Shown piece after piece: positions 6,001 to 9,000 of a stretch of DNA of 64,000 bases. Source of the stretch: a virus (lineage: Duplodnaviria; Heunggongvirae; Uroviricota; Caudoviricetes); the IMG/VR virus record IMGVR_UViG_2562617085_000008; one strand, written 5' to 3'. Each line of letters starts with the position of its first letter. Within the stretch, counting starts at the first letter, position 1. Position numbers: made by a program.

Positions 6001-9000
6001 TTTACGAGTACTGGACGAAGGGTTTTGTCGTTAATCCCCGTAAAATGAGCGTGATGGAAGAACTCAACCAGGCTTGTGCTGACATGAAACGGGATAAAAA
6101 CATTGCCAGTGTGTTTGCTACCGGGCTGAATGAGTGGAAACAGGTTAAAGCCGCGCATGTATCAAAAATCCGTACGCTGGTAAATGAAGCGAATATGCTG
6201 ATTGATTTTGTCCTGGCTGATACAGGCAAAGGGAAAATAACAAAGGCGGATTGATGGGGTGGCTAATGATATCAGATAAACTCATAACGCTGGTGAAGAG
6301 CCTCTGTGTACTTGTCGGCATTTCATTTTTAGTCATGCTGGTTGCCATTTTCTTTTCCACCGCCTGGCGAGTCCTGACGTTATCGGGACTGGTGGGGTGA
6401 AAGAGAGATGAACCGTGTTCTGTGTGTGGTGATTATTGTCCTGGCGGTTGGCTATGGTGCGCTGTGGCTGGCAACAAACCATTACCGTGACAACGCGCTC
6501 ACCTACAAAGCGCAGCGCGATAAAAAAGCCAGAGAGCTGGAACAGGCGAATGCCACCATTACTGACATGCAGGTGCGCCAGCGTGATGTTGCTGCGCTCG
6601 ATGCAAAATACTCGAGGGAGTTAGCCGATGCGAGAGCTGAAAATGAAACTCTGCGTGCTGATGTTGCCGCTGGTCGTAAGCGCCTGCGCATCAACGCCAA
6701 CTGTCCAGGCTCCTTGCGTAAAGCCCCCATCACCTCCGGCGTGGATAATGCAACCGGTCCCCGACTGGCAGAAGCCGCTGAACGGGATTATTTCATCCTC
6801 AGAGAACGGCTGATGGCAATGCAGAAGCAACTGGAAGGAGCACAGGAATATATCCGTACCCAGTGTATACCGTGATGTTTTGTTACGAAGGTGTTACTGG
6901 TAACGTTAAGGTAATTTAACAAAGAGTCAGTTCCGGACTTTATAGTGTGCTCAGTTCATGGCCAAAAACGATTTCTGTGATAAATATTTTGAATATTATT
7001 TACAGGTAAATGGAGTGGGGCACATGGATAGAAATATTACAATAGAGTATGAAGTATATGCCCGTATTGTATGGGCAGAGAAGGCAAAAACATGGTAATT
7101 CCGTGTGTTGCCATGATACCTGATTGGCAGAATTGTTGTTTGGTTTTGAGTATATAGTCAGCGTCTTTTGTTCGGTAATTGCTCTTTCAATTAAAATGCC
7201 AGATATGATTTGCTTTTCTTTGTTGTTTAGTTTTTTTGTATATTATTTTTATTGTTTTTATATAATTAGTTTTTTATTGTTGTCTTATTAAGGACGGTAA
7301 ATTCAGGATGGCAGTCTGTAGATAAACGGAGGTTACTTATGCTACATGATCACCTGGCAGAATGTCTGGAGAAAAAAGGACTGTACCGGAGAGCAGCTGA
7401 ACGATGGGCAAAAGTGATGGTACAGCTAAGTGATGACCAGAAAAGAAAAGTGGCGGCACAGAAACGAGCAGAGTGTTTGCGTAAGGCGCGCCGGACTCCG
7501 GTTTCACCGGTGAACCTGACCGAAATAAAACAAGCGGTCAACAGACTACATTCTGAGTTGGGAATGGGATTTGAAGAGCGGCGGGTATTCCGACGATATA
7601 AAGGGACAGGAGAACAGAATACGTCCGGAAACGCGCGGTCAAAAAAATGCTAAAAAATATCTGAGAGCGTTATTGCCTGTTACCATAAGAAAAAGCGACT
7701 TTAGTGGTCGCTTTTTGTGTCATATATAAGTCGTTTAAGTAAACCTGTCTGAACAGGTTCTCTGGTCGTGTTTGTCTTTGTTGGGTACAAATTGAGAATA
7801 TTTTTCATTAATTAATCTTCTTCTGCAGGCTTCAATAACCCACGCTGAAAAATTTCCTGAACCTTTCAGATCAAGAGCGATGTTAATTTGTTCAATCATC
7901 TGGTTTGGAAATCGGATGTTGCGGGTTGTTGTTCTGCGGGTTCTGTTCTTTGATGACATAATGTTGCCCCATATTCAGTGTTGCTGATTTGTATTATCTG
8001 AAGTTGCTTTTACGTTAATTTGATGCAGATCAATTAATACGATACCTGCGTCATAATTGATTATTTGACGTGGTTTGATGGCGTAGATGCACGTTGTGAC
8101 ATGTAGATGATAATTATTATCATTTTGCGGGTCCTTTCCGGCGATCCGACCGGTTACGGGGCGGCGACCTCGCGGGTTTTCGCTATTTATGAAAATTTTC
8201 CGGGGAAAATCATGTCGGTACTTCTCGAACATAACTATTTGTTTTTTCTAATATCGAATCCGTAAAGGTCCGACATGAAAACGCCTGAAAAAGTCATTTT
8301 CGGGCACTTTCATGTCGGACCCTGTATTTGTTGTGAGACTGTTTCATGAAGGTTAATAAAAAGAAACTTGCCGAAATTTTCAACGTGGATCCGCGAACGA
8401 TTGAACGCTGGCAGTCTCAGGGGCTCCCTTGCGTCTCCGGAGGTGGTAAGGGCGTTGAATCTGTATTTGATACCGCCACGGCAATTCAGTGGTATGCGCA
8501 GAGGGAAGCTGATATCGAAAATGAAAAACTCCGTAAAGAGGTTGAGGATTACAGGGCTGCCAGCGAGGCAGATCTCCAGCCTGGGACTATTGAGTACGAA
8601 CGCCATCGACTTACGCGTGCGCAGGCTGACGCCCAGGAGCTGAAGAATGCCAGAGACTCCGCAGAAGTGGTGGAAACCGCATTCTGTACTTTCGTGCTGT
8701 CACGGATCGCAGGTGAAATTGCCAGTATTCTTGACGGGATCCCTCTCTCAGTACAGCGGCGTTTTCCGGAACTGGAAAACCGACATGTTGATTTCCTGAA
8801 ACGGGATATTATCAAAGCCATGAACAAAGCAGCCGCGCTGGATGAACTGATACCGGGGTTGCTGAGTGAATATATCGAACAGTCAGATTGATATTCTGCG
8901 GCGTGATGTACGCGCCGGGCTGCGAGCCCTGTTCAGGCCGGAGCCACAGACTGCCGTTGAATGGGCGGATGCCAGTTACTATCTCCCGAAAGAATCCGCA

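Follow-up and report, generated by a model that had tools for sequence, protein, structure and literature searches.

A 104-residue PerC-family protein of a mosaic lambdoid prophage identified as an allele of the virulence regulator PchB

Enterohaemorrhagic Escherichia coli (EHEC) needs a prophage-encoded switch, Pch, for the LEE (locus of enterocyte effacement) type III secretion system and, through it, for attachment to the gut epithelium. Here, we describe the analysis of a 64,000-nucleotide stretch of viral DNA (the window) from IMG/VR record IMGVR_UViG_2562617085_000008, in which the open reading frame (ORF) at 7339-7653 is almost certainly an allele of pchB, encoding a group-1 Pch regulator of the PerC family and carried by a lambdoid prophage as a self-contained unit, some 0.96 kb long, in the slot from Rz to cos. 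The identity and anatomy of this gene, the boundaries of its cassette and its distribution among E. coli genomes are established below. The gene is a named and experimentally characterised virulence regulator, already known from a bacterial genome that ranks among the most studied: since 2004, publications have covered the gene, its paralogues and targets, and a large part of its regulation, and the identification adds no new biology. No evidence in the analysis contradicts the assignment to pchB. The coding sequence is annotated as follows.

7339-7653, plus strand: pchB coding sequence, ATG start, 104 amino acids plus stop codon, intact; assigned as a PerC-family group-1 Pch regulator

A first-pass annotation, made from the sequence alone, had called this product a 104-residue PerC-like protein whose class could only be judged by alignment. 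The Pfam PerC model PF06069 matches it at E = 5.4e-44 with 148.8 bits (gathering cut-off 22.6), residues 1-89 aligning to profile positions 1-89 of 90, and RefSeq labels it PerC family transcriptional regulator (WP_001302717.1); no NCBIfam model matches the protein. In an alignment of 81 PerC sequences, R17, R18, A19 and W23 do not vary and G14, R22, C46 and G75 hardly do, and the window protein carries this full core motif. Since the PerC domain is common to all five homologues of the O157:H7 strain Sakai, a family match alone does not separate the classes. The protein was aligned with those five annotated perC homologues and with PerC of plasmid pMAR2 from enteropathogenic E. coli (EPEC) E2348/69, with the following identities to the window protein.

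pchA, ECs_1091, Sakai Sp4: 99% protein identity (L6V)
pchB, ECs_2182, Sakai Sp11: 100% protein identity (104/104)
pchC, ECs_2737, Sakai Sp14: 99% protein identity (V58M)
pchD, ECs_1388, Sakai SpLE1: 27.6% protein identity
pchE, ECs_1588, Sakai Sp7: 40% protein identity
PerC (BfpW), EPEC E2348/69 pMAR2: 46.6% identity over about 88 residues

The alignment thus not only gave significant similarity to the family but resolved the class as group 1 and the allele as pchB. The protein has the attributes of a group-1 Pch, namely a length of 104 amino acids, at least 98% identity to PchA, PchB and PchC, and distinctness from PchD, PchE and PerC. That the gene might instead belong to a non-LEE class like PchD and PchE (the latter a repressor of curli and flagella), hardly affecting ler, has virtually no likelihood. 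It shares only the family domain with that class; with PchB it has 100% identity, with PchD 27.6% and with PchE 40%, its product has 104 rather than 89 or 90 amino acids, and its position between Rz and cos on a lambdoid prophage matches pchA, pchB and pchC and differs from the slots of pchD (SpLE1) and pchE (Sp7, beside ssb). The alignment rules out the PchD/PchE-like class.

The agreement with pchB extends to the DNA. Positions 6876-7760, comprising the upstream region, the coding sequence and the terminator, are identical to the Sakai pchB locus at 885 of 885 bases; identity over this region falls to 95.1% with the Sakai pchA locus and to 93.7% with the pchC locus. In a three-locus Sakai alignment, the differences between pchB and pchA/pchC are concentrated in a promoter-proximal block at about 7185-7290. 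The assignment to pchB therefore covers both the coding sequence and the upstream region, because of the unbroken DNA identity and this pchB-specific block. The cassette in which the gene is embedded has the following parts.

6866-7824 (approximate), plus strand: whole pch cassette (moron), the segment lacking from the same slot of Sakai Sp8 and Sp9
6876-7338, plus strand: AT-rich intergenic region, presumed regulatory and promoter DNA upstream of pch and a likely H-NS-type target
7328-7332, plus strand: Shine-Dalgarno sequence GGAGG, 6 nt before the ATG, read from the sequence
7690-7716, strand unassigned: intrinsic terminator hairpin with an 11-bp stem, AAAAAGCGACU/GGUCGCUUUUU, and a 5-nt loop

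Its boundaries were read from related prophages of Sakai that occupy the same slot with other DNA: homology to Sp9 stops at 6865 and that to Sp8 at 6853, and both restart at 7825, the intervening position holding bor in Sp8 (as in lambda) and about 465 bp of unrelated DNA in Sp9. The unit is shared by the Sakai pchA (Sp4) and pchC (Sp14) loci and consists of the AT-rich upstream region, the Shine-Dalgarno sequence and coding sequence, the hairpin, and the 3' end of a ylcI/ynfO-like gene. The hairpin, identical across the pchA, pchB and pchC loci, folds as RNA with a free energy of -17.3 kcal/mol (z = -2.15 against shuffled sequences) and bears an A-run on one flank and a T-run on the other; it could end both convergent transcripts, that of pch and that of the ylcI/ynfO-like gene. 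A simple terminator scan of 6700-8400 passed over it, the T-run being taken up in the stem by pairing, and it was recovered by folding.

The upstream region begins directly after the Rz stop codon (6875) and ends before the pch ATG, so that the AT-rich stretch of some 450 bp described at first pass is in fact 463 bp long. Its G+C content is 33.0%, against a window mean of 50.2%, 49% in the pch ORF and 52-56% in Rz and terminase on either side, and it drops to 19.8% in a core at 7185-7300. Only 1.8% of all 463-bp segments of the 64 kb are equally low, the others lying in the region of effector and insertion sequence (IS) cargo. Runs of five or more A/T occur at 13 per kb, compared with 5 per kb window-wide. 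No Rfam family was found within 6800-8400, and thus no support for a known small RNA in the AT-rich stretch. We take 6876-7338 to be presumptively non-coding regulatory DNA, in which a promoter and H-NS binding would be situated.

The same stretch could in principle be partly coding, with a 46-residue protein (6958-7098) as a second gene of the cassette. It is uninterrupted at the pchA, pchB and pchC loci and has a full-length match to phrog_2157 (E = 1e-37). Nine of the ten codon differences among the three Sakai copies are, however, non-synonymous (one is synonymous), so it shows no sign of purifying selection; neither RefSeq nor the Sakai annotation calls a gene there; and its tblastn matches in phage records are confined to fragments of the pch cassette itself, for which reason the phrog_2157 match is not independent evidence. 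A second cassette gene is accordingly quite improbable, and we regard 6958-7098 as unlikely to be a gene. Another ORF, of 55 residues at 7124-7291, was rejected as a gene, since stop codons interrupt it in pchA and pchC.

What is said here of ler activation and of an anti-H-NS mechanism is taken from the literature. According to the accounts given in PMC6265319 and PMC5931665 of Iyoda and Watanabe 2004, full expression of ler and the LEE, as well as adherence, requires the group-1 pch genes and not PchD or PchE. On a chromosomal ler::lacZ fusion, cloned PchB of strain PA20 was the strongest activator, with 12,513 versus 1,577 Miller units, and PchD and PchE did little there (PMC5931665). PA20 carries a 100% identical copy of the 885-bp region 6876-7760. 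Since the window protein is identical to PchB, ler activation should carry over to it, which lends support to the initial suggestion that this prophage may feed into LEE regulation. Pch-mediated activation of LEE1 is entirely dependent on repression by H-NS/StpA/Hha/YdgT; Pch cuts H-NS occupancy at LEE1 and boosts Ler-dependent activation at other LEE promoters (PMC4764244). Upstream of Pch, LrhA activates pchA and pchB (Honda 2009, as related in PMC4456613 and PMC13012123); LrhA-dependent expression of these two genes is reported in uninduced cells, and nitrogen and butyrate signals reach pch by the LrhA route (PMC4456613, PMC13012123). Additionally, SOS induction leads to more group-1 pch transcript (PMC5931665, PMC6265319), a rise that fits the sense orientation of pch at the end of the late operon.

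Together with the anatomy of the cassette, these reports suggest the following course. In the lysogen, a promoter belonging to pch and situated in the AT-rich DNA before it would drive transcription, with LrhA, relaying nitrogen, butyrate and other cues, as an input. The product would associate with AT-rich DNA at the LEE1 promoter and there displace or remodel the H-NS/StpA/Hha silencing complex, allowing ler to be transcribed; Ler would in turn activate the remainder of the LEE secretion system (type III), and Ler and Pch together would switch on non-LEE effectors, including nleA, nleH, nleF, espM1 and nleG of the same prophage. Upon prophage induction, late transcripts antiterminated by Q should read through pch as well, since it follows the late lysis genes in the same orientation.

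The product is a basic, all-helical protein of 12 kDa (isoelectric point 10.3). AlphaFold predicts five helices with a disordered tail at the C-terminus, at a mean pLDDT (predicted local distance difference test score) of 78.6, and the first 50 or so residues superpose on hairpins like those of tetratricopeptide repeats; no helix-turn-helix or other known DNA-binding fold was seen in the model, and the Protein Data Bank holds no sequence homolog. Because the predicted fold lacks such a domain, there is a slight chance that Pch is no sequence-specific DNA binder at all and may act as a helical adaptor through RNA polymerase or a nucleoid protein; the lesser alternative under the same slight chance is that the 46-residue ORF might be a real, co-transferred micro-protein.

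Distribution was assessed in 5426 complete E. coli genomes. The pch cassette is present in 673/5426, with a median of three copies and a maximum of five, nearly always on the chromosome, and in 687 of 692 records, from O157, O145, O121, O111 and other strains, identity to the pch ORF reaches 99% or more. Strain TR01, which matches the window at 100% over 1-9000, 6876-7760 and 29000-45500, also has ler and the LEE1 promoter at 100%, so that the target is present. A collection of phage genomes contains the cassette only as two short fragments, both from induced EDL933 (ATCC 43895) material; it is for this reason known from prophages and not from isolated phages. More distant PerC-like matches occur in phages Pollock and Fels-1.

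Three points weaken the reading of the gene as a promoter-equipped, directly acting regulator with its target at hand. Although ler with the LEE1 promoter occurs in 697/5426 genomes and pch in 673-676/5426, these are separate aggregate totals and not a joint tally. The in vitro exclusion of H-NS was carried out with crude extracts rather than purified Pch (PMC4764244), so that direct contact between Pch and DNA is putative. Furthermore, a consensus σ70 scan of 6700-8400 detected no promoter in 6876-7338, which makes a promoter there a matter of inference. The best candidate is the following element.

7261-7266, plus strand: candidate -10 hexamer TATAAT, the sole 6/6 match in 6876-7338, proposed from sequence only

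A weak -35 sequence (3/6) lies 18 nt upstream of this hexamer, which sits in the pchB-specific block and has no counterpart at that position in pchA or pchC. The negative scan invites the reading that pch has no promoter of its own and is only the tail of a Q-dependent late transcript. In that case the AT-rich stretch would be a spacer, or a scar of recombination, and the gene would be carried along by the late operon rather than be a true moron. The gene is oriented as the lysis genes are, no terminator is predicted between Rz and pch, and the SOS-induced rise of group-1 transcripts (PMC5931665) would be expected. Against this, LEE expression in uninduced cultures needs Pch, pchA and pchB respond to LrhA, and pchA is also responsive to butyrate and Lrp (PMC4456613, PMC13012123, PMC4764244), which argues that pch promoters are active in lysogens. 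Differential regulation of pchA and pchB is reported by Honda 2009, and the three Sakai copies diverge precisely in the promoter-proximal block at 7185-7290. Moreover, AT-rich promoters silenced by H-NS often want a good -35 element, and a perfect TATAAT is at hand at 7261-7266. We therefore consider transcription by late read-through alone improbable and favour a cassette with its own promoter. The description of the cassette at first pass as a moron fits: the AT-rich upstream DNA, the terminator and the absence of pch from the slot in Sp8 and Sp9 agree with it, the promoter in that DNA being putative. The term moron is apt in that the unit is a discrete insertion with its own terminator and a base composition unlike that of the surrounding phage genes.

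The first-pass annotation had also located the gene between lysis and packaging genes. This is the case, with Rz upstream and cosN, Nu1 and the terminase gene downstream.

6408-6875, plus strand: Rz i-spanin lysis gene (PF03245, E = 1e-46), left neighbour of the cassette
6628-6813: Rz1, nested inside Rz, a 61-residue ORF with a lipobox; Sakai has a lipoprotein precursor at the same relative position
7735-7959, minus strand: YlcI/YnfO-family (DUF3950) gene, convergent with pch (PF13132, E = 1.8e-18; NF041551, E = 1.5e-8)
8159-8170, plus strand: lambda-type cosN GGGCGGCGACCT, exact match, where the late operon ends and the packaging module starts
8346-8891: Nu1 (PF07471, E = 4e-91), first packaging gene, followed by the large terminase subunit

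The genes upstream of pch are those for a holin, a lysozyme, a P22-Ant-like antirepressor and Rz, and the location between Rz/Rz1 and terminase on a lambdoid prophage recurs in the same order at the Sakai pchB and pchC loci. Of the YlcI/YnfO-family gene, the 3' end (7735-7824) falls inside the pch-specific cassette. The sequence GGGCGGCGACCT at 8159-8170 is the cohesive-end sequence of lambda. Within the lysis cassette, a P22-Ant-type antirepressor gene (PF10547, E = 1e-45, plus an ORF11CD3 domain) and a 147-nt ORF stand between endolysin and Rz at 5685-6400, an arrangement that matches Sakai Sp9 and Sp11.

Strain TW14359, from its position 1,691,958 onward, is 100% identical to the window over the stretch compared, positions 1-49,043, and positions 1-9000 are found contiguously in only 73 of the 5426 complete genomes. 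The first of the two prophages in the window (1-43500) resembles different Sakai prophages along its length. Its early and lysis region (1-6865) is Sp9-like (99.3-99.97%), its late region (4272-24786) Sp11-like (98.6-99.1%), and its J/lom/tail-fibre region (24786-28465) again Sp9-like (96%); Sp9 itself is without pch. Judged by these alignments the prophage is a recombinant mosaic of Sp9 and Sp11, and since it combines both backgrounds and Sp9 lacks the gene, the pchB module has been recombined onto the nleA-carrying prophage in the TW14359-type lineage.

Apart from its regulator, this prophage carries a type III effector cargo region at 29236-43034, whose effectors are of the kind of non-LEE genes co-regulated by Pch and Ler (PMC4764244).

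29236-29810: DUF1076 gene, frameshifted
30150-31475, minus strand: nleA
33302-34213: nleH1-2
34279-34848: nleF
35814-38126: ISEc8, among the effector genes, beside IS256, IS630 and IS3 remnants
39455-40102, minus strand: nleG
40286-40876: espM1
42696-43034: NleG-family fragment

The first prophage shows signs of being defective (3296-4116, 18283-18585 and 22315-23058). Compared with Sakai Sp9 ECs_1781, the large ORF that follows the tRNAs has lost about 1 kb; the gene for tail assembly protein T is truncated, and the C40 peptidase tail gene is interrupted by a stop codon. In tandem with this prophage, a second lambdoid one occupies 44163-64000, 97.7% identical to the integrase end of Sakai Sp9; the part of it that lies within the window has no PerC homolog. 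Its genes, and the RNA genes of both prophages, are as follows.

2540-2772: tRNA-Ile(CAT) (called Met by ARAGORN) and tRNA-Arg(TCT)
2882-3090 and 60851-61043: STnc100
3092-3151 and 61045-61106, both minus strand: AgvB (anti-GcvB)
44163-44288: ompW remnant, start of the second prophage
44334-45464, minus strand: integrase of the second prophage, with excisionase and exonuclease after it
48838-48889, minus strand: DicF
55620-55794: sok
59601-60659: methylase, second prophage
60706-60765: degenerate tRNA
61254-63200: large late ORF, second prophage

A functional pchB allele would mark this prophage as a contributor to virulence regulation. At the level of strains, in O157:H7 of the TW14359/EC4115/TR01 type, pchB shares one mosaic prophage with nleA, nleH1-2, nleF, espM1 and nleG, and the union of regulator and effectors on one prophage illustrates how lambdoid recombination reshuffles regulator and cargo.

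Among known systems the closest is the Sakai pchB locus on Sp11, whose order of Ant-like gene, 147-nt ORF, Rz/Rz1, pch, Nu1 and terminase is also that of the window. It differs in that the window cassette stands in a mosaic with the Sp9-like early region (1-6865) and cargo; this cargo is Sp9-like, with paa upstream in TR01 and then nleA, nleH1-2 and nleF, and, in agreement with TW14359, EC4115 and TR01, the prophage adjoins the second one at ompW and does not lie at ydfJ. The PchA and PchC loci have the cassette, Shine-Dalgarno sequence and terminator of the window, and both proteins activate ler (PMC5931665), but each has one substitution and their upstream divergence is focused at 7185-7290. 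At the Sakai pchA locus (22131-24728 of the compared Sp4 stretch) the segment from lysis genes to pch is inverted relative to the rest of Sp4 and is flanked by copies of IS629 and ISEc8, with IS elements separating it from the terminase genes; group-1 copies thus do not all lie in an intact late operon.

PerC of EPEC belongs to the same Pfam family, has the G-x-YRRA-x-RW motif and activates LEE1/ler (PMC4764244), but with 89 amino acids it is without the C-terminal tail of about 15 residues found in the window protein, and it is the third gene of the plasmid operon perABC rather than a phage moron. Under many conditions EPEC can express the LEE without it (PMC4764244). PchD and PchE likewise have the PerC domain and both lie on horizontally acquired elements of the Sakai genome, but they are of 89 and 90 amino acids, occupy other genomic contexts and have little or no effect on ler (PMC5931665, PMC6265319); PchE represses csgD and curli (PMC5931665, PMC6265319). 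Finally, the bor moron of lambda and Sakai Sp8 fills the same slot from Rz to cos/Nu1, as a lysogenic-conversion gene between conserved flanks. It is an unrelated lipoprotein gene on the opposite strand, whereas pch encodes a regulator and lies on the strand of the late operon.

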